64,000 nucleotides of DNA from a phage (GCA_027263115.1 GCA_027263115.1_3656.1); one strand, 5' to 3'. Shown: positions 2,212-16,866, counted from the first letter of the stretch. Numbers and translations are program-made. The notes: a model not told the origin generated them from the letters alone.

Positions 2212-2540
2212 CAGAGATCATCGTTTCAACTGCAGGGTATGTATTCCTGACAATCATTGCGTTGGCTATTCTGGTGGCGGTGTATGGATTTGTTATCCTG
2301 CCTATTCTTGAGACATTTAGCTTGTGTCGGTGTTGGAGAAAAGCTTACGGACCACAACCGTGGAAAGACTGGTTTCATTTGGTGCGTATAGCGTTCTCTT
2401 ATGCCTATGATCACTCCAGCAGTGCATGCGTAACCGGGTACCATGCCTACAACTGGAACTGGGAAGGGCTGGGGAGATGGACTGTTACAAAAACTATACC
2501 CTTACGGTTGTATAAAGGAAAGAACACACTGGGAGCCTGA
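2208..2540 (+). CDS. hypothetical membrane protein
   Basis: 110 aa, ATGA start/stop coupling, N-terminal hydrophobic helix. Confidence 0.55.
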   Translation: MTEIIVSTAGYVFLTIIALAILVAVYGFVILPILETFSLCRCWRKAYGPQPWKDWFHLVRIAFSYAYDHSSSACVTGYHAYNWNWEGLGRWTVTKTIPLRLYKGKNTLGA

Positions 2541-2850
2541 TATTTTAAGTTATCAGGTTGCCAGAGATCAGGAGGATTTCTAAAATGGATTTCCTCCTTT
2601 TGATATTTTACCTACCAGGATATTTTAAAATCCTTAGAAAATCAGAAAATGGATCGAAAACTAAAATGGATTTTTCAGAGCAGGCACGACGAGATGAACC
2701 ACTCATCCTATCGTCTGCACCATATTCCAGACCACCATTACAGATTTCCCGCACATGCTCACACCCTTCTACTAGAACTTCCCCCACTTACCCTTGACCT
2801 TTTATAGTAATAATCCAACCACTACCTTGAAGTTGTGGCGCAGCTTTCCA

Positions 2851-2938
2851 AGTACTCGATCTGTTTTTCGTTTCAAAGATTGAATTTTCTGAAAATTTTT
2901 CTCGATAAATTTCTCAGTACTCGATCTGTTTTTCGTTT
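2851..2938. repeat. direct repeat pair (22 bp AGTACTCGATCTGTTTTTCGTTT x2) in ORF-poor T-rich segment
   Basis: Identical copies at about 2851-2873 and 2916-2938, surrounded by related tttcgtttt / aaatggattt motifs. Confidence 0.6.
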
Positions 2939-3554
2939 TCTGAATCTGATTTTCTGGAAATCGTTCCGGCTCTCGACCTGAAATTTTTGGGGACGAAATC
3001 GATTTTTCGTTTTCAGAAATGGATTTTTAAAATTTCTATATGGGAATATTTTAGTGGATACTATTTTATAGGAAATTGTTACGGAGGGTAATTAGCGTGC
3101 TAATTAAATTTATTAAATGCGAGGAGTTCTCATTTAGAATTTTGAATGATAATCATTCTCGTTTGCAGAATAACGGGCAGGCCCGGTGATTGTCTCCCGG
3201 CCCCTACTGCCCCGGCTTGTTATTATAGTAACACACAGGACAAAGAAAGCAAGAAGTTTTTGCATAAATTTTTAGACGATAATGATAATCGTTCTCATTT
3301 CATGCAGCGCCCATCCCCGGTGGTTGTCTCCCCCGTCACCGGTGCCTGCCGTCCTTTCGATAGGTATATTTTGCCACCTGGCGGGGCCGCTGTCAACACT
3401 TTTCAAAAAAATTTCTAACCTGATGCGCTGACCGCTGCAACCTGGCGGGGCCAGCCTGGCAGGGCCTAACTGACCAGGTAGGAGAGAATGAAGGCTTGCA
3501 AACCTGGTGGGCCTATGCTATAGGATAGGTAACAATTGAAGAGGAGGTACAAAA

Positions 3555-3816: not shown

Positions 3817-4014
3817 ATGAACGCCTACGGAATTAAAGTACGTCGCAACACTCGCCAGGTGGTCACCAATCAAGTGATTTGCCGGGTGGATGTAACCATC
3901 AACAACGGGCAAGGCCTTTATAAATTTCGTCGCGGTCATAGCTATACCCTGCAACAGCTTAACCGTTGCGCCCTGACAAAAGGTCAGATCAACCACTGGT
4001 TTAATAAAAAATAA
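3817..4014 (+). CDS. hypothetical protein
   Basis: 65 aa, SD AGAGGA upstream. Confidence 0.55.
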   Translation: MNAYGIKVRRNTRQVVTNQVICRVDVTINNGQGLYKFRRGHSYTLQQLNRCALTKGQINHWFNKK

Positions 4015-4026
4015 TGTTGACATATG

Positions 4027-4055
4027 GTCTGACACAAAATACACTGAAATCGCAA
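4027..4055 (+). promoter_or_regulatory. sigma70-type promoter TTGACA-N17-TACACT
   Basis: Hexamers upstream of ORF 4078. Confidence 0.45.
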
Positions 4056-4077
4056 AAGACACTAAGAGGATAAAATC

Positions 4078-4476
4078 ATGAAAACCACTACCTTTAATTT
4101 TGATAATGCGGACTTTTCTTTTTCTGATGTCAAGAACTGCCGCCGTGATCGTGGATTTTACAAGGCTTATAATCTGGTGGGCCTGGACGATGACAATAAT
4201 TTGCACGAAGTAGCTGAGATCCGGTATTATGCCGCCGCCAGTGGTAACACTCACTACTGCGTGTTTTGGATTCACGACAACAAGAACAATAAGTACGGTT
4301 ATACTGGCGGCAAGGCGAGCGGTCACGGTTACGATAAAGCTAACGCAGCACTTGAGAGTGCATTAAATGCTATGGGGATCACTGCCGACGGCTGGATCTA
4401 CGAAGAAGAGTTTTTGTCGGCACTTGCTGACCACCTGGGCTATAAAAAGCACATTGTGACATGCGCCCACGAATAA
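4078..4476 (+). CDS. hypothetical protein
   Basis: 132 aa, SD AAGAGGA upstream. Confidence 0.6.
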   Translation: MKTTTFNFDNADFSFSDVKNCRRDRGFYKAYNLVGLDDDNNLHEVAEIRYYAAASGNTHYCVFWIHDNKNNKYGYTGGKASGHGYDKANAALESALNAMGITADGWIYEEEFLSALADHLGYKKHIVTCAHE

Positions 4477-4482
4477 AAATCA

Positions 4483-4510
4483 TTGACACGCTGCAAAATT
4501 TAAGTAAACT
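4483..4510 (+). promoter_or_regulatory. promoter-like TTGACA-N16-TAAACT followed by leader hairpin
   Basis: Consensus -35, weak -10; GC hairpin GGCGGGG...CCCGCC then CA-rich leader. Confidence 0.4.
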
Positions 4511-4558
4511 AGACACAAAAGGCGGGGATGTTTCCCGCCAGCACAAAGGAAAAAGATC

Positions 4559-4954
4559 ATGAATAAGAACGTACGCCGCATCATGAACGAACTGGCAAAC
4601 GATGAAAAAATTATTGACATGCATTTATTCAACATTTGCCGCCGTTGTGTAACATATAACAACCGCGCCGCAAAAGCGCGTGAGATGAATGCGAAAGGCA
4701 CCTTAAAGCCCTTTCAGGTGGTTGTAAAATCTATAACCAGTGCAGCAGGCCAGGCGCATGACCACAACAACGAGAGCGCTAATATTGATCCGTCTTACGT
4801 AATGAAACGGATCCGGACTTGCAAGAATAAAGAGCAGGTGTATAACGTCATAGATTGGCTGGACTCCCTGGGTGATGTGGTTTACAATAGGTTTTCTGCA
4901 GCTATCGAGATCCAGCTTGACAGATTGGACGGGAAAGTACTGAAAACTTACTGA
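4559..4954 (+). CDS. hypothetical protein
   Basis: 131 aa, SD AAAGGAAAAAG. Confidence 0.6.
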   Translation: MNKNVRRIMNELANDEKIIDMHLFNICRRCVTYNNRAAKAREMNAKGTLKPFQVVVKSITSAAGQAHDHNNESANIDPSYVMKRIRTCKNKEQVYNVIDWLDSLGDVVYNRFSAAIEIQLDRLDGKVLKTY

Positions 4955-4955
4955 G

Positions 4956-5001
4956 TTTATTTTTAGATGGCCTTGACTCCAGGGCCATCAATAAAGTAAA
5001 C
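4956..5001. repeat. 46-bp intergenic repeat element, copy 1 (TTTATTTTTAGATGGCCTTGACTCCAGGGCCATCAATAAAGTAAAC)
   Basis: Near-identical copies at 5575-5620 and 9310-9355; contains ATGGCC/GGCCAT inverted repeat and TTGACT box. Confidence 0.7.
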
Positions 5002-5033
5002 TAACCACAGTTGAGCGGAAAGGGGGCTTAAAG

Positions 5034-5153
5034 ATGAGTACTACACGCCAGCACACAAAGGTAACTATTATCGTTTGCATCATTGGTTACATCCTGGCGC
5101 AAATGTTGATGGGTAGCGCCAACGGTATCGCAAAATTTTTCTTAAACTTTTAA
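5034..5153 (+). CDS. small hydrophobic peptide (39 aa)
   Basis: ATG after AAGGGGG; single TM-like helix; paralog-like to the 11513 peptide (shared S-x-NGI motif). Confidence 0.4.
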   Translation: MSTTRQHTKVTIIVCIIGYILAQMLMGSANGIAKFFLNF

Positions 5154-5181
5154 TTGACAAGCTAACTTAGATCAGTATACT
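5154..5181 (+). promoter_or_regulatory. sigma70-type promoter TTGACA-N16-TATACT
   Basis: Hexamers followed by GGGAA/TTCCC leader hairpin. Confidence 0.5.
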
Positions 5182-5231
5182 AAACACATAAACGGGAAAA
5201 CTTCCCAGAACACACAAAAGGAGAAAACACC

Positions 5232-5573
5232 ATGACTACTATGACCGCCGCAGAAAAAGCTATGCAGATCGCCGCGCTGAAAAAACAGATCGCAGACCTT
5301 GAGAATAAGATCGATAACTTTGAAATCGACGAGGACAAGTACGACGAAAACTATGATGAATGGTTAGACGAGATCTACGGCGAAATTATGATCGGAAACA
5401 TTTCTTTTCTTCCGTCGCGTATCCTCAAGGAGCTAGATCCTATCGCTTACCGCTGCGGATTTAGCGACTACATCGACAGCTTGGATATTGAGGACGATGA
5501 AGAATACCAGGAATTGCATACAGAGCTTGAAGAAGTGAAAGAAGAGCTTGCAGAACTGGAAGAAAACGAGTAA
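5232..5573 (+). CDS. highly acidic coiled-coil protein (DNA-mimic candidate)
   Basis: 113 aa, SD AAGGAG; roughly one third Asp/Glu with heptad-like N-terminus. Confidence 0.6.
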   Translation: MTTMTAAEKAMQIAALKKQIADLENKIDNFEIDEDKYDENYDEWLDEIYGEIMIGNISFLPSRILKELDPIAYRCGFSDYIDSLDIEDDEEYQELHTELEEVKEELAELEENE

Positions 5574-5574
5574 A

Positions 5575-5620
5575 TTTATTTTTAGATGGCCTTGACTCCA
5601 GGGCCATCAATAAAGTAAAC
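5575..5620. repeat. 46-bp intergenic repeat element, copy 2
   Basis: Identical to copy 1 over about 46 bp. Confidence 0.7.
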
Positions 5621-5662
5621 TTTATACTGTTAACACTGAACTAATGCATAGGAGTTAAAACC

Positions 5663-5908
5663 ATGGCAGCACTAATCACCAAATATTATGCCCCTACCAA
5701 CACCAAAAGCGCCCGTATCATGGTAAAAGGCTTCGGACGTAAAAAGGTTTACACCTGGGATTATGCCTTAGACACGGAAGACAACTACACCAACGCGATG
5801 ACCGATTTTATTAATGACCTGAACACGCGGATCTTGACAAATTATCAAATTACCGATATTGCCTATATAGGGGAAGGCGGGATCTGTTTTGTCGGTATCG
5901 TCAAATAA
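5663..5908 (+). CDS. hypothetical protein
   Basis: 81 aa, SD TAGGAG. Confidence 0.55.
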   Translation: MAALITKYYAPTNTKSARIMVKGFGRKKVYTWDYALDTEDNYTNAMTDFINDLNTRILTNYQITDIAYIGEGGICFVGIVK

Positions 5909-5983
5909 GCTGGTTTTTCGGTGGTCCTGGTAGCAGGGCCATCTATAAAGATAGTTTATCAACACAATGAAAGGAGAAAGTAC

Positions 5984-6331
5984 ATGATCAGCGGGGCTAG
6001 TTTTATTATTGGCGCTATTGCTACGGCTTTAATTGTAAACAAGATCCAGGATAAAAAGGAAAGTACCGCCCTTGCAGAATATCCATTTTGGACATTCAAC
6101 GATAATGAAGATTATATTATAAAGTATAAAAATAAAGAAGGTGACCAAGTAACACCGCGACCGATCCCGGCTTACAAAATGCAGGAAACACTGTACCGCC
6201 TGGAAGCGGGGGGCGCAAAAATTGTAGACTTTTGGGGATACGATCACACAGATCAGGAAGTTATAAAGCGCCGTATCCGGGCTATTCAGGCCAATATTGA
6301 AGTTAGCAAGGGGGGAATATATGAAGATTAA
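5984..6331 (+). CDS. hypothetical membrane-anchored protein
   Basis: ATG after AAAGGAGAAAG (start trimmed from track ORF 5921); N-terminal hydrophobic helix. Confidence 0.55.
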   Translation: MISGASFIIGAIATALIVNKIQDKKESTALAEYPFWTFNDNEDYIIKYKNKEGDQVTPRPIPAYKMQETLYRLEAGGAKIVDFWGYDHTDQEVIKRRIRAIQANIEVSKGGIYED

Positions 6332-6518
6332 TTTTGAGAAGATTGTAAAGCGATCTCATGATTCCGAAGATCTGCCGGAACGACGCCAGCGTAACAATAA
6401 ACTGAATAAGCCAAAAAGATTTGGGAAGATCTGGCGAAATCATTATGATCGTAAACTGCCGGGCCTGCTTTTGGAACGTGAACGACAGGCGGAACGATAC
6501 CGCCACAAAGACAAATAG
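6321..6518 (+). CDS. small basic protein
   Basis: ATG after AAGGGGGG, overlaps previous gene by 11 nt; Arg/Lys-rich. Confidence 0.45.
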   Translation: MKINFEKIVKRSHDSEDLPERRQRNNKLNKPKRFGKIWRNHYDRKLPGLLLERERQAERYRHKDK

Positions 6519-6525
6519 CAACCAA

Positions 6526-6553
6526 CGCCCCGCCATTGTGCGGGGCTTTTTAT
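6526..6553 (+). terminator. rho-independent terminator
   Basis: GCCCCG-loop-CGGGGC hairpin followed by TTTTTATTT. Confidence 0.6.
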
Positions 6554-6698
6554 TTCTATCCCGCCGATAGCGCCCCTGGTTGGCCCTACAAGCGCCATAA
6601 AGGCCCCTACCTATGCAATCCCCTTTATTAACCTGAAAACATCGCCCAGGGCCGTTTTATGGTGTTAAAATATTATTGATAGTTATTTTATTTAAAGC

Positions 6699-6727
6699 TT
6701 GACACCTTGGAATAGTCCGGATATACT
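6699..6727 (+). promoter_or_regulatory. sigma70-type promoter TTGACA-N17-TATACT
   Basis: Hexamers upstream of ORF 6763. Confidence 0.5.
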
Positions 6728-6762
6728 AACCACATCAAAGCAAGAAGGAAGGAGTAAACGCC

Positions 6763-7032
6763 ATGCGTAAATTAAAAAATTTTGATAAAGTTGATATTGT
6801 CCTGAATAATTTTTACTACTGCAATAACAAGGCCGTTTGGTGGCGTGATAGTTCCACCGATAAAGTCAAGGCGCGCTTTCTCCAGGGGCACTGGCAAGGC
6901 CGCCCAGTGATTAAAATCATGGGGCAATTGGTAGCGTTTAAAAATTGCCGCCGTGTTGATGACGTTGAAGAGATTTTAAACATTTTGCGCCACAATAATT
7001 TAAAAATAGTGTTGACAAGTAAATCTCAATAA
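6763..7032 (+). CDS. hypothetical protein
   Basis: 89 aa, SD GGAAGGAG. Confidence 0.55.
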   Translation: MRKLKNFDKVDIVLNNFYYCNNKAVWWRDSSTDKVKARFLQGHWQGRPVIKIMGQLVAFKNCRRVDDVEEILNILRHNNLKIVLTSKSQ

Positions 7033-7039
7033 GTATAAT
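7012..7039 (+). promoter_or_regulatory. sigma70-type promoter TTGACA-N16-TATAAT
   Basis: Consensus hexamers, then leader hairpin GGCGG...CCGCC. Confidence 0.55.
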
Positions 7040-7096
7040 TAAAAACACAGGCGGGAAAACTTACCGCCACTAACAAAGAAAACAGGAGAAAATATC

Positions 7097-7720
7097 ATGA
7101 CCACCGTTAACATTACCACAGGTTGCAATTTATCTTTCGACGTGCTGACCGACGAACAAAAAGAAAAAGCTATTGAAATGGTCCGCGAAAGAGAAGAACA
7201 CAGCGGAGAGGATTTTTTCGCAGAAAGTGTAATTGAATATTATAAAGAACAAGTTTTTCCAGAGTACGGCCTTGAAGATACCGATGTACATTGGTCCGGC
7301 TTTTGGTGCCAGGGTGACGGCGCGTCAATCAGTGCTGAAAACGTGGATTTAGAAAAATTCTTGCGTAAAGTAAAGGCCCTGACCAAGTTCCGATCAATTC
7401 GTCACTTGTTTGGCACAATGCACGATGGCGAGTTATCAGCCAGTATTGAACGCGACAAGTACAGCCATTACAGCCATGAAAACACTGTAAGCGGATACAT
7501 TGATACCACCTGGCTAGATCTGACCGCCAAACAAGAAAACAAAGTGGAAGACCTGGAAGAGCTGATCACCGAGACGGTACGGGAGCTATCCCGCAAGGTT
7601 TACGTAGACCTGGAGGAGGCCTATCTAGAACAGTTCACTACCGAAAACCTGATCGGCCTTATTGAGGCCAATGATTGGCGGTTTGATGTGGATGAATATG
7701 GAGAGATGAGTTTTTCATAA
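7097..7720 (+). CDS. acidic hypothetical protein (207 aa)
   Basis: Largest early ORF; SD CAGGAG; Asp/Glu-rich. Confidence 0.65.
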   Translation: MTTVNITTGCNLSFDVLTDEQKEKAIEMVREREEHSGEDFFAESVIEYYKEQVFPEYGLEDTDVHWSGFWCQGDGASISAENVDLEKFLRKVKALTKFRSIRHLFGTMHDGELSASIERDKYSHYSHENTVSGYIDTTWLDLTAKQENKVEDLEELITETVRELSRKVYVDLEEAYLEQFTTENLIGLIEANDWRFDVDEYGEMSFS

Positions 7721-7728
7721 ATAAAGTG

Positions 7729-7756
7729 TTGCAATAATCTAAAAACCTGCTATATT
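7729..7756 (+). promoter_or_regulatory. promoter TTGCAA-N16-TATATT with leader hairpin
   Basis: Followed by GGGGCAA-loop-TTGCCCC hairpin and CA-rich leader. Confidence 0.45.
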
Positions 7757-7809
7757 AAAACTCAAGGGGGCAAGACGTTTGCCCCACACAAAACAAAGAG
7801 GAAAACATT

Positions 7810-8190
7810 ATGAAAAACACTACTAAAGCTATTGACACCGTTATGTTTAACCTGGTTACCTTTCGCGAGGATATGAAAGATCTTCCACGTGAAACAGTGT
7901 GCGATCACATTGAAAACTATCGCAAACTAATCAAAGAGTTGCCTTTAAAACGTGACCAGTATGCGGCTAACGCTATGCTCAACGCCATGATCAAAAAGAT
8001 GATTCAGTGTGATTTAACCCTGGCCTATGATTATGCAGGTGGTCGTTTTGCAGTATACAATCAGCCCGTGCCTGGTATGGGCACCACCGAAGAATTGCAC
8101 GCGCTCAATCTAAAACAAGACGTGTGGGATAGTATGCCCCGCGTGGTGGTGTGGGCAGAAAGCGGAAAGATTTACGGCGATAATTTTTAA
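7810..8190 (+). CDS. hypothetical protein
   Basis: 126 aa, SD AAGAGGAAAA. Confidence 0.6.
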   Translation: MKNTTKAIDTVMFNLVTFREDMKDLPRETVCDHIENYRKLIKELPLKRDQYAANAMLNAMIKKMIQCDLTLAYDYAGGRFAVYNQPVPGMGTTEELHALNLKQDVWDSMPRVVVWAESGKIYGDNF

Positions 8191-8200
8191 TCAGGTAACA

Positions 8201-8226
8201 GGCGGCATATTTGCCGCCTTATTGTT
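8201..8226 (+). terminator. rho-independent terminator
   Basis: GGCGGCA-loop-GCCGCC hairpin followed by TTATTGTT. Confidence 0.55.
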
Positions 8227-8254
8227 AAACAGAACTGCAAAAGAGGTACATAGA

Positions 8255-8626
8255 ATGGAATTTATTATTTTGGCCGTATTAGTTGCCTTGTTTAACGCCT
8301 GGATCGCTGGCAAGATGGGTAGATCCGCCTTTTTATGGTTTATTATATCTATTTTCCTGGGGGTGGTTTCAACTATTGTACTTGTTATCCTTGCAATTGT
8401 TGACAAAGGTGATAATAGAAAGGGTAAAGTATTTTCCGACCTGTATGACGCGCAAACATTTGTCAACGCCTATTATAGTGATCTTCCAGTCTCCCTACGC
8501 TGCAGCCTTGCACAACAGGTTTTCGATGAAGCTAAAACCAGAGATCACGCCCATGAGATTTGTTTAACTGAGGCGGATCGCCTATTTGAGAGGAATAGAA
8601 AATATGTGGGCCAGCCGTTTAAATAA
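8255..8626 (+). CDS. hypothetical membrane protein (two predicted TM helices)
   Basis: ATG after AAAGAGGTA (start trimmed from track ORF 8222). Confidence 0.55.
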   Translation: MEFIILAVLVALFNAWIAGKMGRSAFLWFIISIFLGVVSTIVLVILAIVDKGDNRKGKVFSDLYDAQTFVNAYYSDLPVSLRCSLAQQVFDEAKTRDHAHEICLTEADRLFERNRKYVGQPFK

Positions 8627-8849
8627 TACCACGTTAATTAATCCCTTTGATGAAGATTTGAAGCCAGCCGCCTGGCGTGATGGATTCAATAACGAACGCT
8701 TTATTTTCAGGCCTGATCTTAAGGAATTTTATAACAATGGATCGAACAACGACAGAGATAATTTTTCTTGTGATGTGCGTGGTGATGGTACTCCTGGGGG
8801 CCATTGTAAACCACGTCACTACTACCAGGATGAAAGGGGGAGACGATGA
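8604..8849 (+). CDS. hypothetical protein
   Basis: ATG after GAGAGGAATAG, overlaps previous gene by 23 nt. Confidence 0.4.
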   Translation: MWASRLNNTTLINPFDEDLKPAAWRDGFNNERFIFRPDLKEFYNNGSNNDRDNFSCDVRGDGTPGGHCKPRHYYQDERGRR

Positions 8850-8965
8850 CAACCAAGGATAAGCCCCGCACCGATAAGGTGCGCCGGGTTATGGTATGGC
8901 TTGAGATCATCGCCCTTGAAATATTGTTAGGCGTAGGGATGTATTTTATCGCTGTAAGTAACTGA
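8846..8965 (+). CDS. small hydrophobic peptide (39 aa)
   Basis: ATGA overlap with previous stop, SD GGGGGAG, single TM-like helix. Confidence 0.4.
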   Translation: MTTKDKPRTDKVRRVMVWLEIIALEILLGVGMYFIAVSN

Positions 8966-8969
8966 TAAC

Positions 8970-9012
8970 GGCCCCCGATCCCTGGGGGCCTAACTTTTTA
9001 AAATTTTTTTTC
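8970..9012 (+). terminator. rho-independent terminator
   Basis: GGCCCCC-loop-GGGGGCC hairpin followed by long T-rich run. Confidence 0.6.
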
Positions 9013-9022
9013 TCCCTGAGTG

Positions 9023-9052
9023 TTGCAATCCGATCCAGAATATGGATAATAA
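9023..9052 (+). promoter_or_regulatory. promoter-like TTGCAA-N18-TAATAA
   Basis: Shares ATATGGATAATAA core with the 10186 promoter; followed by leader hairpin. Confidence 0.4.
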
Positions 9053-9106
9053 TAATCAACGGGGAGCTAATCCCCACCAACACAAAAACCAGAAAGGAGA
9101 AACAAA

Positions 9107-9307
9107 ATGAGCAACAATATCCGCGTTATTAACTTCAAAAAAGAAGAAAAAATTGCCGTGCTGATTGACGGTCAAGAAATCTTCAAGGGCTATTATGAAG
9201 ATCATCAAACGGCGATTAGTATCACTCGCGTGATTGGTTACCATAATTTTTACCCCCAAGGCGCTGAGGCGGCGGTTAAACGAATCAAAGAGATTGTAGG
9301 CCTGTAA
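9107..9307 (+). CDS. hypothetical protein
   Basis: 66 aa, SD AAAGGAGAAA. Confidence 0.55.
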   Translation: MSNNIRVINFKKEEKIAVLIDGQEIFKGYYEDHQTAISITRVIGYHNFYPQGAEAAVKRIKEIVGL

Positions 9308-9309
9308 AA

Positions 9310-9355
9310 TTTATTTTTAGATGGCCTTGACTTCAGGGCCATCAATAAAGTAAAT
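9310..9355. repeat. 46-bp intergenic repeat element, copy 3
   Basis: Two mismatches relative to copies 1 and 2. Confidence 0.65.
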
Positions 9356-9391
9356 TTAAACCCTGTTAAAAGACCACGCAGTTAACAAGGA

Positions 9392-9700
9392 GTGATAGAC
9401 ATGTTTATCCAGGCTAATAATCTTTATTTCTTTGATGGTCAGATCGTAGATGGTGTGGAAGTGGAGATCACCGGGTGCCCTGGCGGTCAGGCTATGACTT
9501 TTCGGAATAATGCCTTTGATGATTCTCATATCGTTATGAGAATGGAAGTTACGAAGCTGGACGACAAGAAAACACTTATTGACTATTCTGTGAAAGATCA
9601 TCCAGACTACCACATGATCTATGGTGATTTGTGCGTTGTTGACCGTGACAAGGTGGGCGGCATTGTGATCGCTATTGTGAACGATGTTTTCTCAAACTAA
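9392..9700 (+). CDS. hypothetical protein
   Basis: 102 aa, SD AAGGAG. Confidence 0.6.
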   Translation: MIDMFIQANNLYFFDGQIVDGVEVEITGCPGGQAMTFRNNAFDDSHIVMRMEVTKLDDKKTLIDYSVKDHPDYHMIYGDLCVVDRDKVGGIVIAIVNDVFSN

Positions 9701-9717
9701 TTTCAGCAGGTGATTTT

Positions 9718-10068
9718 ATGAAAATAAAACTATATTACCTTAATGAGCTTAACCCCCTTGCCCAGGTCCGCGCCATAGCTAATACCTTGATTTGTGAGAA
9801 ATCTGTATATTGTGTTGAGCTTAACGCCATGCGTGAACGTCTCAAAGGTGGTTACTTTGACATCCATACTGCAATCAACGGCCTGAATATGGAATTTATA
9901 CGCTTACGTAACAGCCGCTGGAATCTGGCAAGAATGGAACAAGATCCGGCCTACCTTCGTAAGCTGGTTATTGAAAATCATCTGATGTTTAATGCCGAGG
10001 GTGATTATTACCATTTTCACCGCAGACGCTGGTACCGTGGCGGCAATACAGGCAAGAATGCAAAATAA
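9718..10068 (+). CDS. hypothetical protein
   Basis: 116 aa ORF following previous gene. Confidence 0.5.
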   Translation: MKIKLYYLNELNPLAQVRAIANTLICEKSVYCVELNAMRERLKGGYFDIHTAINGLNMEFIRLRNSRWNLARMEQDPAYLRKLVIENHLMFNAEGDYYHFHRRRWYRGGNTGKNAK

Positions 10069-10103
10069 GGCCCCTAGCAGGGCCTGCAGCAATATAATCA
10101 CAT

Positions 10104-10137
10104 AAAGGCCATGCAACCGCATGGCCTTTATTATTTT
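10104..10137 (+). terminator. rho-independent terminator
   Basis: 11-bp stem AAAGGCCATGC/GCATGGCCTTT, then ATTATTTTGG. Confidence 0.65.
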
Positions 10138-10185
10138 GGCGTTACAACGGCATACGGGGCGCTTAAAAAATTTTTAAAGAAGTAC

Positions 10186-10215
10186 TTGCATCATTCCCGA
10201 CAATATGGATAATAA
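10186..10215 (+). promoter_or_regulatory. promoter-like TTGCAT-N18-TAATAA
   Basis: Paralog of the 9023 promoter, followed by GGGGG/CCCCC hairpin. Confidence 0.4.
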
Positions 10216-10270
10216 GAGTTGTCGAGGGGGAGGCCCCCAATCGTTGACCAGATAGATAGGAGTTAAAATC

Positions 10271-10555
10271 ATGGCTATTGTTACCGCTGGCGATGTAGTA
10301 GAAATGGAAGCAAAATACTTAAAAGCGGGTATGCACATCCTACGGAATGATCAAGAGTTATTATTAACGATGGTTGACTATAATCCCGGCCAGGATTATC
10401 CAAGCATCGACTACTTTTTTGAGTATGTTGATGAAGAGTTGAAAGAGGATGAGGCATATTGCGGTGAGTTCTGCAACTTCTTTTGTCCTGATGAGGTTGT
10501 AAAGGTTATTTATCAACCTGGCGTACCTTTCCCACTGCACGCTATCAATAAATAA
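10271..10555 (+). CDS. hypothetical protein
   Basis: 94 aa, SD TAGGAG. Confidence 0.6.
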   Translation: MAIVTAGDVVEMEAKYLKAGMHILRNDQELLLTMVDYNPGQDYPSIDYFFEYVDEELKEDEAYCGEFCNFFCPDEVVKVIYQPGVPFPLHAINK

Positions 10556-10609
10556 ACCTGGCGGGGCCGAAAAGGCCCCAATTATGAAAATAAAGAGAGG
10601 TAAATCATC

Positions 10610-10843
10610 ATGATGGAACAAATTAAACGCGCTGAGGCTATTAATGGCAATGTGATCTATTTTGTCAGCAAAAACGAAAAAGGCGTACCATATGCGGCGG
10701 TAATAGTACAACCTGACGGCGATTATTGGTTTACTGTGTACGGCGCTTATTCTTTTGGGCGTCCAGTGCATGATAAAATTTTGAAAGTAGCGAACCCTAC
10801 CGGGAAGAATATCACAGCAGAAAAATTTTTTGAAAATAGTTGA
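10610..10843 (+). CDS. hypothetical protein
   Basis: 77 aa, SD AGAGAGGTAAA. Confidence 0.55.
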   Translation: MMEQIKRAEAINGNVIYFVSKNEKGVPYAAVIVQPDGDYWFTVYGAYSFGRPVHDKILKVANPTGKNITAEKFFENS

Positions 10844-10867
10844 CATGACCATATAAGACTGTAATAT
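10840..10867 (+). promoter_or_regulatory. sigma70-type promoter TTGACA-N16-TAATAT
   Basis: Hexamers then leader hairpin GGGGC/GCCCC. Confidence 0.5.
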
Positions 10868-10918
10868 ATAAATCAAAGGGGGCAACAAGCCCCACCAACC
10901 ACAAAGAGGATAAAAATC

Positions 10919-11098
10919 ATGGCTATTATTGCAAAGACTGAGATCGTAGGCTTAGATTCTATTCTACTCGCATATGAGGAAGCTATAGAAATGTATGTGG
11001 TTTCCTACGGTGAATATATCCGTGAATATAAATCTATTGATCTAGCTTTTGAATGTTATATTCGCCAGGTCAATAAAGCATATGATGATTATCGTTAA
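10919..11098 (+). CDS. small hypothetical protein (59 aa)
   Basis: ATG after AAGAGGATAAAAA; below track cutoff. Confidence 0.5.
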   Translation: MAIIAKTEIVGLDSILLAYEEAIEMYVVSYGEYIREYKSIDLAFECYIRQVNKAYDDYR

Positions 11099-11189
11099 AA
11101 TAGTTTGACAACAAACAACCATCTAACAAAGCATAATACATAAGGTGGTAGAATGATCCGCCACCTGGAACAAAGAAGAGGTAAACACC

Positions 11190-11435
11190 ATGAAAAGCAA
11201 TAAAGGTTATAACGGTTACAAAAACAAAACTCATTGGAATGTAAGCCTTTGGATTAATAACGATGAGTCATTGTACCGGTTGGCCCAAGGCTTTATTAAC
11301 GCCAATGCTAATCGTAATGATGCGGCGCGGGATATGATGCTTTTTCTGGAGCTAACCGGACAAGATAAGACCCCGGACGGCTTCAAGTACAGCACTACGG
11401 CGATCCGTGCCGCGATGGTTGGAATGAAACACTAA
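11190..11435 (+). CDS. hypothetical protein
   Basis: 81 aa, SD AAGAGGTAAA; preceded by GGTGG...CCACC leader hairpin. Confidence 0.55.
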   Translation: MKSNKGYNGYKNKTHWNVSLWINNDESLYRLAQGFINANANRNDAARDMMLFLELTGQDKTPDGFKYSTTAIRAAMVGMKH

Positions 11436-11512
11436 AAGCATATAGCCGCCTTACCCTGGGGCCGCTGCTACGGCCCCATGAATAAGGTTACTAACAGAAG
11501 AGAATAAACACC

Positions 11513-11617
11513 ATGAAACAAAAATTAATTGATGCTGTGATCCTGGTTATTGCCTTAGGTATTGGCCTGATTGCAACCATGGCTAATGTGATCTTGTCTT
11601 CCAACGGTATCGGGTGA
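11513..11617 (+). CDS. small hydrophobic peptide (34 aa)
   Basis: ATG after leader hairpin and AGAAGAGAATAAA; TM-like; shares SSNGI motif with the 5034 peptide. Confidence 0.4.
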   Translation: MKQKLIDAVILVIALGIGLIATMANVILSSNGIG

Positions 11618-11626
11618 GGTTGACAA

Positions 11627-11842
11627 ATGATCACTAACAAAACAGGAAAAACAGAATTTTTACGCAACTTACAGATCGGCAAGCCTGAGATCTGGCATTG
11701 CACTAAAACACCACGTGACGAAATGAAAGACTTCACCGCCACGCTGCAACGGGTAAAGATATCCATCACGCAGAAAAAGGCCTTGCTAGTGGTGGAAGGT
11801 GAGATCCCCCAAACCGTTGTTATAGTTGAGCGTACAGCATAG
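11627..11842 (+). CDS. hypothetical protein
   Basis: 71 aa, weak SD GAGGT. Confidence 0.45.
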   Translation: MITNKTGKTEFLRNLQIGKPEIWHCTKTPRDEMKDFTATLQRVKISITQKKALLVVEGEIPQTVVIVERTA

Positions 11843-11933
11843 TTTAATTTATAGAGATACCTGAAAATTAACCAATAAAGCATAAACAGGCGGTTACCGC
11901 CGCCTTAAACGTAGCAGAAAGAGGATAGACACA

Positions 11934-12218
11934 ATGAAAAAGATGATCGCAGTGGTTGCCCTAGTTGTTGGACTTAATGCGCCTGTAATGGCTAAAGAGC
12001 TGGCAAAAGAGGTTAATCTAACGGATATTCATGCCGTCAATCAAATCGGGGTTACTTATCGCTTATGCCTTGCCGCTAAAACTTTTAATGACGGCACAAC
12101 AGAGTACTACGGATTCGAGGGTATCCGGTGCGGTGAGCTTGCTCGCGACCTTAAGGAAGATCCAGATCTGGAAGATCTACCCATCACCGTAAACGGTAAA
12201 GCTTACGTAAACCGTTAA
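11934..12218 (+). CDS. secreted/periplasmic small protein
   Basis: 94 aa, SD AAGAGGA; N-terminal signal-peptide-like MKKMIAVVALVVGLNAPVMA. Confidence 0.6.
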   Translation: MKKMIAVVALVVGLNAPVMAKELAKEVNLTDIHAVNQIGVTYRLCLAAKTFNDGTTEYYGFEGIRCGELARDLKEDPDLEDLPITVNGKAYVNR

Positions 12219-12220
12219 CC

Positions 12221-12355
12221 ATGAGAAAGATAATCATCACCTTGGGGATTGTGGTAGCAATACTGGCGCTCTTTCCCCTTATGGTTAGGTATGTGCTGAT
12301 CAGTGTTGTCCTGATAGTCAGCGATCTATTGGAAACGGTTGGCACCTTGTTTTAA
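12221..12355 (+). CDS. small hydrophobic peptide (44 aa)
   Basis: Starts 3 nt after previous stop, no clear SD, strongly hydrophobic. Confidence 0.3.
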   Translation: MRKIIITLGIVVAILALFPLMVRYVLISVVLIVSDLLETVGTLF

Positions 12356-12368
12356 AGAGCGATAAAAA

Positions 12369-12560
12369 ATGAATATCGAACAAGTTAGAAAGGTATTAGC
12401 GGTACTGCGTTATCATAATCATAGAAAGGTCATAGACGATCCTGATTATGTTGATTCAAGTCTAGAAGAGGATACACTACAAGCCATAAGTAACATGCAA
12501 GAATTGCTAAAGCGCATGACAGAGAAAAACAGACCGGACTACATAGGCGAAAAAATATAA
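12369..12560 (+). CDS. hypothetical protein
   Basis: 63 aa ORF in gene array. Confidence 0.5.
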   Translation: MNIEQVRKVLAVLRYHNHRKVIDDPDYVDSSLEEDTLQAISNMQELLKRMTEKNRPDYIGEKI

Positions 12561-12577
12561 TATTTATAAACTACAAA

Positions 12578-12607
12578 ACAGGGCTTGCAATGGCCCTGTT
12601 TTTGTTA
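12578..12607 (+). terminator. rho-independent terminator
   Basis: ACAGGGC-loop-GCCCTGT hairpin followed by TTTTTGTT. Confidence 0.65.
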
Positions 12608-12687
12608 TACTTATTCTACGGCAGGCACCTGGCGACGGGGGGAGACAATCACCGGGCCTGCCTGTCATACAAGAACTATAAAAACCG

Positions 12688-12716: not shown

Positions 12717-12770
12717 TTATCTTGAAGGGGCAAAAGTGCCCACACAACAACCAGGAGAGAGGAAAACATT

Positions 12771-13043: not shown

Positions 13044-13103
13044 TAAGATAATGACACGGGCCAAAAGGCCCACTAATCAGAACCACACAAAGGGAGAAAG
13101 AAA

Positions 13104-13322
13104 ATGACAACCCGTAAAATTAAAGTTGTTTGCATTGAATCGACTGGGGGCGCTTTTGTAGTTGGTCAGGAATATAATGCGGTTTTAATGGGTACGGATT
13201 GGAAGGTTAAAGGCCTTAATGGTTACGAGTACGGCACTACTTGCGGCTTGCGTGGTCGAATCGGATACGTGAGTTTAGACAATAAAGAAAAATTTGTTTT
13301 CGACACCCTTGTGAGTAAATAG
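13104..13322 (+). CDS. hypothetical protein
   Basis: 72 aa, SD AAGGGAGAAAG; preceded by GGGCC/GGCCC hairpin. Confidence 0.55.
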   Translation: MTTRKIKVVCIESTGGAFVVGQEYNAVLMGTDWKVKGLNGYEYGTTCGLRGRIGYVSLDNKEKFVFDTLVSK

Positions 13323-13400
13323 CATGAATTGCTAAAGACTGATCTGCGAACTGCTGTATTATCAACTAATCAAAACGAACCACATAAAGAGGTAAACATC

Positions 13401-13664: not shown

Positions 13665-13728
13665 TACAACAAGTTACGGTCAGGGGGCAATAAAGCCCCT
13701 TGATCACATAAAAATTATGCTATCCTTA

Positions 13729-13757
13729 TTGACAAGGATCGGCAGTTTTGCTATATT
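13729..13757 (+). promoter_or_regulatory. sigma70-type promoter TTGACA-N17-TATATT
   Basis: Hexamers upstream of ORF 13807. Confidence 0.5.
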
Positions 13758-13806
13758 CTTTTTTAAAGGGAAGTTGTAAGAAAATTAACTAAGAGGTAAA
13801 AACACC

Positions 13807-14226
13807 ATGAACATTAAATCTAATAATCCGGCATATAGCTTTGATAACGCTTTTTGTCACGGTCCGGCGGCGAAAGGATTCGAAATCGATGGTAAACTAA
13901 TTATTGTCAATGTTGACGGGGAAGAGGTTGCAGTATATCCGGTGGCAGACGTAAAAAGCCGTTTACAATGCCGCATTGATGTTACCGCCTATCAGCTTGA
14001 TCCGGTCCGCATAGTTGCCCTGGTCCTGGAAGAAGAAATTAAAGCCATGCACCATAGCAACAGGTTTATTGGTGACGCTCAGGATAATATGAAGGTGTGC
14101 CGCCATAAAGTTAATGAAGTGCTTAAAGAGTACGGCTATAAAGATCTTATGATCAAACGTGATGAAAAATTCCGGTACCGTAACGACCTGGCAAATCGAA
14201 TCTATGAAATATACGAATCATTATAA
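13807..14226 (+). CDS. hypothetical protein
   Basis: 139 aa, SD AAGAGGTAAAAA; last gene of rightward early array. Confidence 0.6.
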   Translation: MNIKSNNPAYSFDNAFCHGPAAKGFEIDGKLIIVNVDGEEVAVYPVADVKSRLQCRIDVTAYQLDPVRIVALVLEEEIKAMHHSNRFIGDAQDNMKVCRHKVNEVLKEYGYKDLMIKRDEKFRYRNDLANRIYEIYESL

Positions 14227-14244
14227 TTTTTTAACTGAATTATC

Positions 14245-14270
14245 AAGGGGCTTAGGCCCCTTTCTTTTTG
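14245..14270 (+). terminator. rho-independent terminator closing the early array
   Basis: AAGGGGC-loop-GCCCCTT hairpin followed by TCTTTTTG. Confidence 0.65.
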
Positions 14271-14877
14271 TCTGATCTTCCCCCTACCATAAACGGCCCT
14301 ACCTGGCAAGTGGAATAATTGACGAGCCATCAACCCCACACACTGTACAAATATACATGTAAAATAACTATTGCATAACTTTTCATTGTGTGGTAGCAGG
14401 GCTATTTTTACCCGTTTTTCCTTCCAAAATTGCACGTAATGCAGCTATTGCACAAAATTTAACCTGATGCATATCTTCAGTGTCTTGTCAACAACTAAAA
14501 ATCTTTATAAGTCATGCACTTACATAACCACAAAAGCGTGCTCTACGTGAAAAATCGAGTATAACTATAGCCGCCAGATCTCAGAATTTACGTACGCTCA
14601 CCATTCTATAGTCTGCTAAGTATTTATTCCAACCATAGAATAACGGAATAGTCAATACCTGCATAAAATAATTATTCGTGTAAACTGCATAACATAAATC
14701 AGCTTAGGTGTCAACATTTTTCGTAAACAGTCTGAAATTATCACGATGAGTTATCATAAACAGAGAAATCTTTAGTCGTCTAATGTTTACTGTACGTTAC
14801 TATACTAACTGAAATCATTAGATGACTAATAGAAAGATAAGAAATAATTAACAATACAATTATTTTATCTGTAACAA

Positions 14878-15165
14878 TAAGGCAACTATGCAAACGAATG
14901 GCATGGCGCGACGGAGTCGCGACATAATATAAAAGCAGTAACCATCACCCCCGTGATAGTTTGTCTGCAATCTATTAATCAGATCATAGTTGCCTTGTAT
15001 TTAGTTAATCATGACATAACAAGCAAGGCAACTATAGATCTGCTAATAGTTGCCCTGCTTTTATATTATGTCATAGGAACGCCCGAAGGGGTGACCTAGT
15101 CACCTGGCATAGCCAGCGAAAGATTATTAACTTGGTAATAGTTATCATGCAAACGAATGGCATGG
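14878..15165. repeat. nested palindromic region: 18-bp inverted repeat (about 14921-14938 vs 15055-15072), 19-bp direct repeat ATGCAAACGAATGGCATGG x2, AGGCAACTAT/ATAGTTGCC inverted copies
   Basis: Reverse complements and direct copies read directly in the sequence; no ORF with a ribosome-binding site. Confidence 0.65.
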
Positions 15166-15179
15166 CTTATCATCTCTGT

Positions 15180-15420
15180 GTAAACAGTCAATCATGTAAA
15201 CTATTAGATATGTAAACAGTAAAGGGCGTGAACAGTAAGCGAGGGAATAGTAATAGCGTGAATAGTGACAGCGTAAACAGTGACAGCGTAAACAGTCAGG
15301 CATGTCAATTATGTCATATTGTGTCACCATTATGTCACTATTGTGTCACCAGTATGCCCAGTATGTCAATTGAGTCTAAAGTGTCAAAGGTGTCAGACAA
15401 GTTTTTCTCCTCTTTGTCAA
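15180..15420. repeat. tandem short-repeat arrays (GTAAACAGT family incl. 15-mer TGACAGCGTAAACAG x2; then 22-bp TTATGTCAYTATTGTGTCACCA x2 with further TGTCA units)
   Basis: Direct reading; track ORFs here are low-complexity artefacts of the repeats. Confidence 0.7.
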
Positions 15421-16866
15421 GTGCTGCATGAAAAATTTACAAGCTTGTATGGTAGCATTTTTGCGGCCCGTTTACATTCAGTGATGTATGTATAACCCTT
15501 GTTGTGTGGGAGTTTAGACGTCTAGACGGTTGGAAGTCTGCAGGTCAATATCTAATCTATCGGCTGCTAACTATATCCCACACAAATAGTAAGAAATATA
15601 ATTGTTATATGTGTAAACAGTAACTCATGTTATCAATCCCTGTATGGATCGCCAGTGGTGCGCATAATGGGTATTATGTTAAATTGCCCGTAATGATAAC
15701 AGTTCTCACAATGATAGGTATTCTCATTCATCCACACAAAATAGGTTGCAAATGTTGTGCCACTGTGTGAACGGCCTGGCCTATTAATTTCTCTCACTGC
15801 CTCGATATTTGAGGATTGTTATAAGAATGAGAAGTATTCCCATTCCGTCCGCCTGGCAGCGCTCCTGTAGGTCCTGCAAGGACTCTAGCTGAAAGCTAGA
15901 CCCTTCGGGCCTCCCTGTAGGTCAGGTCAAAATCGTGGCAGAACTGAGCCTGTTCAGATATTTCTGGCTGACTCTTCAGGTCTGTGTGGGAAAAGCCAAC
16001 CTCTCCGGCGGGGCAGGGGAGGGAGGTAAATTAAAAAATTTACGTGGTGTATGAAGCGCTCTTCAGGTAAGGCAGGTATTATGTGATGAAACCCTCTTCA
16101 GGCAATGATATTTGTGGGTGTGATATTTGCTGGAAAGCCAGATATGACGGGACTCCCGGCGGGGCAGGGGTAGTACAGACGGGGGAAATATGGGGATGTA
16201 GTTGGGGAAATTGATCAGGCAGGTAGAGTATGGAATATGTTACAAGTATGTTAAATATGGAGGTTGAATATCTGTAGGATTTGTGTGTAAAATCAAAGAC
16301 TTAAGTGGTGTTGTGGTATTTTCTATAAATAATTCAAGTTTAATAGGTAATATTTGCCTCTATCCACTTTGTGTGGTAAACAGATTCAGATGAGATTAGT
16401 TTACAAGTGTATACATAATATACAAATTAAAGATACAAGAAACCCCCCTCCCCCCTTCGGCTACCATTCACCTTTTCCTCTGACTGGTACTTAAACACTT
16501 ATTCAGACTCTTCAGGTTATCACCCATATATCATATGGCAGTGACTGGTGTCCTCCGGCCCCTCTTTCGTCACCCGTCCGCTTCGCCATGCTAATGCCAT
16601 AGCTAATGGTTCGGTTGTTCACCCTGTTCACTCAGGTGTATCTCTATACCCCTTCAAACCGAAGAGAACAGAAAACCCGAATTACTCGGTAAAAGAAAAG
16701 AGAAGAACTTAATTTTATCAGGATAGGCAAGAATGTCAAGGCATGACTGCTCACTAAACAAGCAAACAGTCATGTGTGGGAGGTAAGTGATTGTGGTGGT
16801 AGGAAATTTAGTTGAAAGATGTGTTATAGGTGCTTCCAGCACTTTAGCCGGGCAGCTAATTGTGTG

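Follow-up and report, generated by a model that had tools for sequence, protein, structure and literature searches.

Four stop codons in the 64,000-nt stretch of phage DNA analysed here (GCA_027263115.1_3656.1; below, the window) are directly followed by copies of a 47-nt repeat, and RNA folding shows that the entire repeat forms one 18-bp hairpin with two stems. Judging from the comparison of related genomes, this secondary structure of the mRNA-sense strand is under purifying selection, and the hairpin is the common denominator of the repeat family. In addition, the comparison of gene contents demonstrated a role of the repeats as patches of homology for the loss and exchange of gene cassettes. 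On balance, we lean towards the view that the repeats are composite junctions between single-gene early cassettes, that is, a Vequintavirus counterpart of the promoter/stem-loop (PeSL) units of T4-type phages. A preliminary description of the repeats had contained neither the folding of the whole unit as one long hairpin, nor the use of the copies as junctions of cassette recombination, nor the published PeSL precedent.

Copies and distribution of the repeat family

By sequence similarity, the window belongs to a Vequintavirus, an rV5-like Escherichia coli myophage, and represents its early ORFan region. Positions 4000-10000 matched 124 phage records in a megablast search, 110 of the 124 with query coverages of at least 80% and identities of 90-96%, and all 124 belong to the genus Vequintavirus of rV5-like Escherichia myophages. 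The genes between 1 and 14 kb of the window are short open reading frames (ORFs), are all located on the + strand, and are annotated as 'hypothetical protein' in every relative. PHROG and Pfam searches with the 7 proteins flanking the repeats returned unknown function only, and all of them are ORFans. In the rV5 genome paper, the region was assigned to the leftward transcription unit of the rV5 genome. The megablast matches included UNVERIFIED records named 'Campylobacter phage', to which a Vequintavirus taxonomy is assigned. As a side observation, 17 records of this name (MG0656xx), with C. jejuni given as the host, contain what are essentially coliphage genomes of Vequintavirus or Justusliebigvirus, and their host labels are therefore doubtful.

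A repeat search revealed one family with four copies of 51 nt in the window. Relative to the reference copy at 5572-5622, the copies at 4953-5003 and 9307-9357 are 94% and 96% identical, respectively, and the diverged copy at 5907-5957 is 67% identical; the three near-identical copies (94-100%) and the degenerate one of the preliminary description were thus recovered. The canonical unit of hairpin and promoter-like boxes has a length of 47 nt. The features of the four copies are as follows (bit scores from the covariance model described below):

4956..5002, + strand: repeat copy 1; lower stem 4956-4963/4993-5000, upper stem 4966-4975/4980-4989, loop 4976-4979; -35-like TTGACT 4973-4978, -10-like TAAACT 4997-5002; 80.8 bits; after the TGA (4952-4954) of a 131-aa ORFan, before the ATG at 5034
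5575..5621, + strand: repeat copy 2; lower stem 5575-5582/5612-5619, upper stem 5585-5594/5599-5608, loop 5595-5598; TTGACT 5592-5597, TAAACT 5616-5621; 84.8 bits; after a TAA (5571-5573), before the ATG at 5663
5910..5954, + strand: diverged copy (cD); stems 5910-5917/5947-5954 and 5920-5929/5934-5943; 74 bits; after a TAA (5906-5908), before the ATG at 5984
9310..9356, + strand: repeat copy 3; lower stem 9310-9317/9347-9354, upper stem 9320-9329/9334-9343; TTGACT 9327-9332, TAAATT 9351-9356; 79.6 bits; after a TAA (9305-9307), before the ATG at 9401

In agreement with the earlier statement that each copy begins within 3 nt of a stop codon, four stop codons were read from the sequence, and the T-run of each of the four repeats starts 1-3 nt past one of them. 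The distance from the end of the repeat (the -10-like box) to the next ATG is 28-44 nt, with a Shine-Dalgarno (SD) motif in between.

A 37-nt core of the repeat, with up to 3 mismatches allowed, occurs exactly three times in the window, always on the + strand and once per canonical copy, and was not found in any of 100 dinucleotide-preserving shuffles. A covariance model (R1) was built from 27 copies and used with the search filters off. In the 64-kb window it recovered the four known sites only, with far lower echoes on the reverse strand and a next best score of 15 bits (E=2), and it found no further member in the remaining ~80 kb of the related SophiaRose genome; a search for further copies had been proposed together with the preliminary description. 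Outside of the window, a blastn search with the 51-mer matched 121 phage records, nearly all at three places each, and the only one of these records outside Vequintavirus was KKE7M. The presence of copies at matching sites in 121 independent phage records, and also in IMG/VR and metagenome contigs, excludes the assembly artefact that had been named as a possible refutation.

No copy was found in 5,426 complete E. coli genomes (blastn) or in one genome per species of 185,579 bacterial and archaeal species (pattern search). Pattern scans of IMG/VR yielded genuine copies in Vequintavirus contigs only; the matches in one further contig (L005) and at 17 other loci were chance 16-21-mer matches that the covariance model did not recognize. 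Similarly, a metagenome scan found copies in Vequintavirus contigs of ~137 kb only. An Rfam scan of positions 4000-10500 at E<=1 returned no family at the repeats, and a literature search found no paper that describes these elements in Vequintavirus. Altogether, the repeats are peculiar to this group of phages, occupy fixed positions, and all lie within 4.4 kb. Two further candidates were rejected: an apparent 'fourth copy' in A12a is most likely due to a record that begins inside copy 1 (only the record start was examined), and features close to the matches that are annotated in GenBank as 'repeat_region' (isim) and 'terminator' (HdK5) are different sequences.

Several variants of the repeats were observed. 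In copy 1 of Gotham (L002, 5387-5428), 5 nt are deleted and the 3' arm of the upper stem is thereby lost, indicating that this copy is decaying. One metagenomic genome (L021, 2764-2829) has a copy 1 with a 2-nt insertion in the loop (TTGATAACC) and a different sequence downstream. Each canonical repeat also contains an ORF of 10 codons (4968-5000, 5587-5619, and 9322-9354; ATG GCC TTG ACT CCA GGG CCA TCA ATA AAG TAA, that is, MALTPGPSIK*), which was treated as incidental because it has no SD motif and the stem includes its start codon. A GTG at 5921 in the diverged copy shares its frame with the ATG of the downstream gene at 5984 (5921-6331), which is probably incidental as well.

Pairing in the mRNA-sense strand

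The ATGGCC/GGCCAT inverted repeat that had been noticed in the preliminary description is present, but it is only a part of a longer structure. The upper stem comprises 10 bp (GATGGCCTTG / CAGGGCCATC) and is closed by a 4-nt loop. A lower stem of at least 8 bp, which is made of A/U pairs and includes one U·G pair, joins the ends of the repeat (TTTATTTT / AAAGTAAA). The two stems are separated by an asymmetric internal loop with 2 nt on the 5' side and 3 nt on the 3' side. The folding energy of the + strand RNA of copy 2 is -20.3 kcal/mol (z = -6.1 compared with dinucleotide shuffles). The respective values for the + strand of the diverged copy are -22.6 kcal/mol and z = -5.8, and for its allele in other genomes -22.4 kcal/mol and z = -5.1. 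The diverged copy has retained both stems, which it does via G·U and compensatory pairs. On its minus strand the hairpin does not form (-9.2 kcal/mol, z = -1.8), because several G·U pairs of the + strand turn into C·A there.

The conservation of pairing was analyzed with 65 copies from 19 genomes (46 distinct rows). Standard pairs were found in 99.0% of the pair cells of the 65 copies, compared with 38-56% when the 3' partners were slid by 1-3 columns. In the lower stem, three pairs are altered on both sides (UA/CG; UA/GU/AU; AU/UA), and in the upper stem five pairs alternate between G·U and Watson-Crick. Changes have occurred also among the orthologues of the diverged copy themselves, from C-G to U-A at pair 9-55 and from U·G to C-G at pair 24-38, and thus not all of the covariation can be attributed to one ancient event. 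Among orthologues of the canonical copies, the stems have a nucleotide diversity of 0-0.017, compared with 0.15-0.27 for the loop and 0.05-0.39 for the adjoining 8-11 nt on each side. Of the two causes that had been proposed for the high identity of the copies, selection or recent copying, selection is therefore borne out by a stem diversity of ~0 compared with 0.15-0.39 in loop and flanks.

Cassette loss and exchange at the repeats

Two segments of the window are informative about recombination at the repeats:

5003..5621, + strand: cassette of 619 bp that is present or absent; contains a 39-aa ORFan (5034-5153), a sigma-70 promoter (5154-5181), a 113-aa ORFan (5232-5573), and one repeat
5153..5625, + strand: module in common with KKE7M, 95% identity; contains the promoter at 5154, the 113-aa gene, and the complete repeat copy 2

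In magaca, ECP26, and one IMG/VR contig (L006), a single repeat is preceded by the left flank of copy 1 and followed by the right flank of copy 2, and the 619 bp between copies 1 and 2 are exactly absent. The blastn chains across this deletion overlap by 47 nt, that is, by the repeat itself. The coverage patterns of ime and ECP32 are the same as those of magaca and ECP26, so that this precise loss has affected at least 5 genomes. The comparison of copy numbers among relatives that had been proposed earlier thus uncovered several genomes without the interval between copies 1 and 2.

An exchange between subfamilies was found in KKE7M, a Justusliebigvirus of the Stephanstirmvirinae. There, the module replaces a resident gene of 264 nt that is present in the relatives Antha and PD114, and the homology to the window ends just past the -10 box. 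The left crossover is located in promoter sequence common to both lineages (TATTGACAAGATAACTAAAATC) and the right crossover in the common sequence AATAAAGTAAAYT; the hairpin moved together with the upstream gene. KKE7M (L004) also shares three segments of the size of single genes with the window, at 74-94% identity (KKE7M 4274-4467 vs window 10907-11100; 10117-10396 vs 11562-11840; 2757-3090 vs 7843-8176). These similarities indicate that the two subfamilies draw on a common pool of early ORFans.

Within genomes, copies 1 and 2 have private alleles in common. The mean difference between them is 1.75 within genomes versus 2.14 between genomes (permutation p ~0.01). For example, both copies of phiWec196 have an internal-loop T-to-C exchange, HdK5 and V18 have ACA loops, and one metagenome contig has TT loops. 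Such sharing points to occasional gene conversion between the adjacent copies 1 and 2. Gene conversion involving copy 3 was not supported: the permutation test for copies 2 and 3 gave p 0.36, and that for copies 1 and 3 was confounded by an indel in one contig.

Other gene-sized indels of the region have their junctions in similarities of 10-33 nt in ribosome-binding site (RBS), 5' untranslated region (UTR), or hairpin sequences. Thus, the repeats are the longest linkers of the region, but not the sole ones. Five more single-gene presence/absence polymorphisms were observed among Vequintavirus genomes (936-1156, 9693-10058, 11201-11493, 13092-13381, and 13701-14246). Where junction overlaps are present, they comprise 13-33 nt of RBS, 5'-UTR, or hairpin sequence, e.g., AACAAAGAAGAGGTAAACACCATGAAA or GGGGC..GCCCCTT; 936-1156 and 9693-10058 have almost no overlap. 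By these comparisons, the early region is generally 'hyperplastic'. A repeat-mediated deletion in the one-copy genome of rV5_ev146 was considered and rejected, since its deletions (4546-5045 and 6469-12646) use unrelated microhomologies of 10 and 15 nt.

The window contains further direct repeats. Three repeats of ~47-57 nt, 65-74 nt apart and with TACTCGATCTGTTTTTCGTTT... cores, are located at 2842-3027 within an ORF-free stretch of 611 nt (2538-3148). The stretch has a strong predicted structure and could harbor iterons or an origin; presumably it is the 'non-coding' box of the rV5 genome map. Three 28-nt direct repeats (TGTGTAAACAGTCAATCATGTAAACTAT, 79-82% identity) are found at 15177-15637, in a gene-poor stretch (~14250-16080) past the last + strand early ORF examined.

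Promoter signature, interpretation and related systems

Copies 1 to 3 contain TTGACT-N18-TAAAYT, which matches the sigma-70 consensus at 9 of 12 positions. The preliminary description had ascribed TTGACT-N18-TAAACT to each copy. This applies to copies 1 and 2, but the second hexamer of copy 3 is TAAATT, and the diverged copy lacks both boxes, having CTGGTA ... GATAGT (7/12) in their places. Upstream of the hexamers of copies 1 to 3, at roughly -54 to -46, lies TTTATTTTT. The distal subsite of UP elements is located at about -54 to -46. The -35 box takes up the loop and the adjacent tip of the upper stem, and the -10 box coincides with the 3' arm of the lower stem. In 47 canonical copies, the loop bases that represent positions 4 and 5 of the -35 box (AC) are almost invariant, whereas position 6 can be any of the four bases, and the base that follows it in the spacer is also variable. 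A fixed AC next to a free position 6 is the pattern that a constraint on a -35 box would give.

The -10 region links the repeats to other promoters of these phages. One of them is located close by:

4483..4510, + strand: early promoter TTGACA-N16-TAAACT, P194 in rV5 Table S4, which drives the gene that ends at copy 1

The repeat and this promoter have the -10 block AAGTAAACT in common, and AATAAAGTAAACT, which recurs in P194, is the -10 region of a Justusliebigvirus promoter without hairpin (TTGCAA-N16-TAAACT). The spacing to SD and ATG is typical of other early promoters of the region, and in the GenBank record of Gotham, copies 2 and 3 are annotated as promoters predicted by PhagePromoter. 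Taken together, a promoter in copies 1 to 3 is likely but unproven. Of the 'weak promoters' proposed earlier, three of the four copies thus stand by sequence (9/12 match, T-tract, SD/ATG distance, and one PhagePromoter annotation), but the diverged copy does not.

Most early sigma-70 promoters between 1 and 14 kb have a GC-rich stem-loop (GGGG..CCCC type) downstream of them, which is located in the 5' UTR and precedes the SD motif by 15-25 nt:

5'-UTR stem-loops: 4521-4539, 5194-5207, 7050-7068, 7767-7785, 9061-9075, 10879-10893, 11143-11164, 11888-11905, 12732-12746, 13058-13071

Several of them score as minus-strand terminators, and some GenBank records label them as 'terminator'. They may be stabilisers of mRNA 5' ends or blocks of antisense transcription. 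As they resemble the PeSL subclass with a stem-loop downstream of the -10 box, the whole region looks PeSL-organised.

For the repeats themselves, the interpretation as PeSL-type junctions that we favor has three layers. First, as the comparative sequence data show, the 47-nt unit folds into the two-stem hairpin when it is transcribed as the 3' tail of the upstream mRNA, and selection preserves this RNA structure. Second, the hairpin would insulate the upstream transcription unit, either by attenuating read-through or by being cut or trimmed to a protective 3' hairpin; the latter is more likely because a U-tract is missing and because of the shape, which has about two helical turns and an internal loop. 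In copies 1 to 3, the T-tract and TTGACT-N18-TAAAYT would then restart transcription by the host sigma-70 polymerase for the next gene. Third, as shown by comparative genomics, general homologous recombination of the phage uses the repeat, together with other common promoter and RBS motifs, as crossover points, since it is the longest identical stretch in the ORFan-rich region. Such crossovers delete, insert, or exchange whole gene cassettes and leave the expression signals intact.

Several observations weigh against this interpretation. Most of the covariation stems from one old split, between the canonical and the diverged copies, and independent events are few. The hairpin is not followed by a U-tract, and the 'effective terminator' property of PeSLs is therefore unlikely here in its canonical form. 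The promoter signature matches at only 9/12 positions and has a spacer of 18 nt, which is suboptimal; promoters with better matches (11-12/12) are nearby, and the repeats are absent from the 33 promoters predicted by the rV5 authors. The hairpin of the diverged copy occurs without promoter boxes, so that the two functions are separable and the promoter may be incidental. A literature search found no transcript maps of Vequintavirus. Lastly, the two lab-type deletions of rV5_ev146 do not use the repeats, and at least copy 1, which is damaged by the 5-nt deletion in Gotham and deleted in rV5_ev146 with viability kept, is dispensable.

The alternative that survives best, and that we regard as possible though rather doubtful, is a pure RNA element: a processing site of the RNase III type or a 3'-end stabiliser of the upstream mRNA, like the early sites of T7, in which the hexamers arose incidentally from an A/U-rich stem and a chance loop. 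The diverged copy has indeed retained the hairpin alone, the selection on pairing is visible and strand-specific, the hairpin travelled with the upstream gene in KKE7M, and the promoter score is modest. Moreover, a 10-bp upper stem, a 2x3 internal loop, and a lower stem of at least 8 bp, which together make ~two helical turns, resemble the described features of RNase III substrates; in E. coli substrates, internal loops limit cleavage to one strand and thereby leave protective 3' hairpins (PMC1540722). However, a pure RNA element would not account for the near invariance of the loop bases at positions 4 and 5 of the -35 box next to a free position 6, for the -10 block that is found also in two promoters without hairpin, or for a spacing to SD and ATG like that at other early promoters.

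A DNA-level element is improbable. It would be a sigma-70 promoter with the -35 box inside a dyad operator (GATGGCC-N10-GGCCATC) of a phage or host regulator, and the RNA fold would be a by-product. The three canonical copies have a perfect 7-bp dyad around the -35 box, with highly conserved arms. In the diverged copy, however, only one half-site is changed and pairing is achieved by G·U (C·A on the other strand), which destroys the DNA dyad symmetry. As to the protein-binding sites that were an option in the preliminary description, such strand-specific, G·U-dependent pairing argues for RNA over an operator in duplex DNA. The lower A/U stem co-varies although it lies outside any compact operator, and the centres of the half-sites are 17 bp apart, which would be off-phase for a typical dimer.

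The leaky terminators of the preliminary description, that is, intrinsic (Rho-independent) terminators that close each upstream gene, have very little probability left. Their position immediately past stop codons and the stability of the hairpin would fit, and PeSL stem-loops lowered read-through in reporter assays (PMC2839356). However, the stem is followed by CAAUAAAG, and since the unit has the same architecture as its reverse complement, the T-run precedes the stem on either strand. Weak A/U pairs form the base of the full hairpin. A terminator scan did not call the repeats but detected canonical hairpin-plus-U terminators elsewhere in the region (6527-6546, 8200-8219, 8970-8990, and 10102-10131), and the repeats are missing from the ARNold-based lists for rV5 and HdK5.

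We give equally little credence to the idea that the hairpin is a recognised site, be it an attC-like folded-strand target or a sequence bound by an RNA or DNA factor that the phage dedicates to it, and that it actively drives the capture and exchange of early-gene cassettes between lytic phages of different subfamilies. In its more specific form, in which a dedicated phage enzyme would move cassettes by site-specific recombination at an attC-like folded strand, it is more improbable still. In its favor, the structure is strand-specific and in the diverged copy more conserved than the sequence, cassettes were excised exactly between two copies, and a similar idea was raised for PeSLs by Arbiol et al. 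(PMC2839356). However, 47 nt of identical repeat are sufficient for ordinary homologous recombination, other indels of the region use unrelated homologies of 10-33 nt, and the junctions in KKE7M lie in promoter or -10 sequence, one of them without a hairpin in the recipient. In addition, an integrase-like gene was not noticed among the annotated genes of SophiaRose, and G·T pairs are poor in DNA.

A host-derived mobile repeat acquired by the phage, of the type of repetitive extragenic palindromic (REP) sequences and bacterial interspersed mosaic elements (BIMEs) or of miniature inverted-repeat transposable elements, shares with the repeats the short imperfect palindrome after stop codons, a mere resemblance, and is effectively refuted by the absence of copies from the E. 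coli and species genomes and of further copies in the phage (four per genome, all within 4.4 kb), as well as by the lack of target-site duplications and of terminal inverted repeats beyond the hairpin.

If the repeats are indeed PeSL-type junctions, a mechanism known from T4-like phages would extend to another group of large coliphages. Promoter/stem-loop linkers would then not be peculiar to T4-like phages and might be a more general means by which large lytic phages keep small early genes shuffleable; the shuffled genes probably serve host takeover or anti-defence. KKE7M provides a sequence-resolved case of one gene that moved from Vequintavirinae to Stephanstirmvirinae via crossovers in common promoter sequence. 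rV5-like phages are used for typing and therapy. The four repeat sites would mark where loss and gain of cassettes are to be expected and would be natural landing pads for engineering. Furthermore, the hairpin would be a clean candidate for an mRNA-processing or insulator element of phages, which annotation pipelines do not label as a hairpin.

Four known systems are similar to the repeats in some respects. Like the REP/BIME elements of E. coli, the repeats are imperfect palindromes directly 3' of stop codons that form structures on the mRNA strand. The 'REP-like' label of the preliminary description thus stands for the palindrome and the selected mRNA-strand structure, but not for membership of the family: the repeats are unrelated in sequence, absent from E. 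coli genomes, number four per phage genome instead of hundreds, and carry promoter boxes. The early RNase III sites of T7 (R0.3-R1.3) are also intergenic hairpins of ~two helical turns with an asymmetric internal loop between early genes, and a 3' hairpin would be expected on the upstream mRNA in both cases (features according to PMC1540722). However, the sequences are not similar, and the T7 sites are not also promoters or recombination repeats. The module at 5153-5625, which consists of a promoter, one ORFan, and a 3' hairpin, moved as a self-contained expression unit, like the lambdoid morons (promoter-gene-terminator). For morons, which lack conserved flanking linkers, insertion by illegitimate recombination is assumed, whereas both junctions of this module lie in common regulatory sequence.

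The closest similarity is to the PeSLs of T4-type phages, which were described in RB49/phi1, T4/PST, and KVP40/nt-1 (Arbiol et al. 2010; Comeau et al. 2014). A PeSL unit extends from the upstream stop codon in an AT-rich tract over sigma-70-like boxes and a stem-loop, which occupies one of five positions, including one over the -35 box, to the SD motif and ATG; the units are concentrated in hyperplastic ORFan regions, were shown experimentally to be promoters and attenuators, and recombine to give indels and mini-circles (PMC2839356; PMC4122927). In contrast to these, the repeats occur in Vequintavirinae, with exchange into Stephanstirmvirinae, and not in T4-like phages, and they are four copies of one sequence family per genome instead of dozens of loosely similar motifs. 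Their hairpin is long, has two stems, spans the whole promoter, shows measurable covariation, and has no GGGG...CCCC core; they lack a U-tract, which makes terminator activity doubtful, and one copy lacks the promoter boxes, while the hexamers of the three others (9/12) may represent the sigma-70-like boxes of PeSLs. Promoter and terminator activities and mini-circles were measured for PeSLs. In common with PeSLs, the repeats are intergenic and extend from a stop codon in an A/T-rich tract to the SD motif and ATG of the next ORFan, and they hold a stable stem-loop over the -35-like box. They are also located in a hyperplastic early ORFan region and bound gene-sized indels and replacements between relatives, and, as in PeSLs, the crossovers fall into AT-rich, loop, or -10-to-SD segments.

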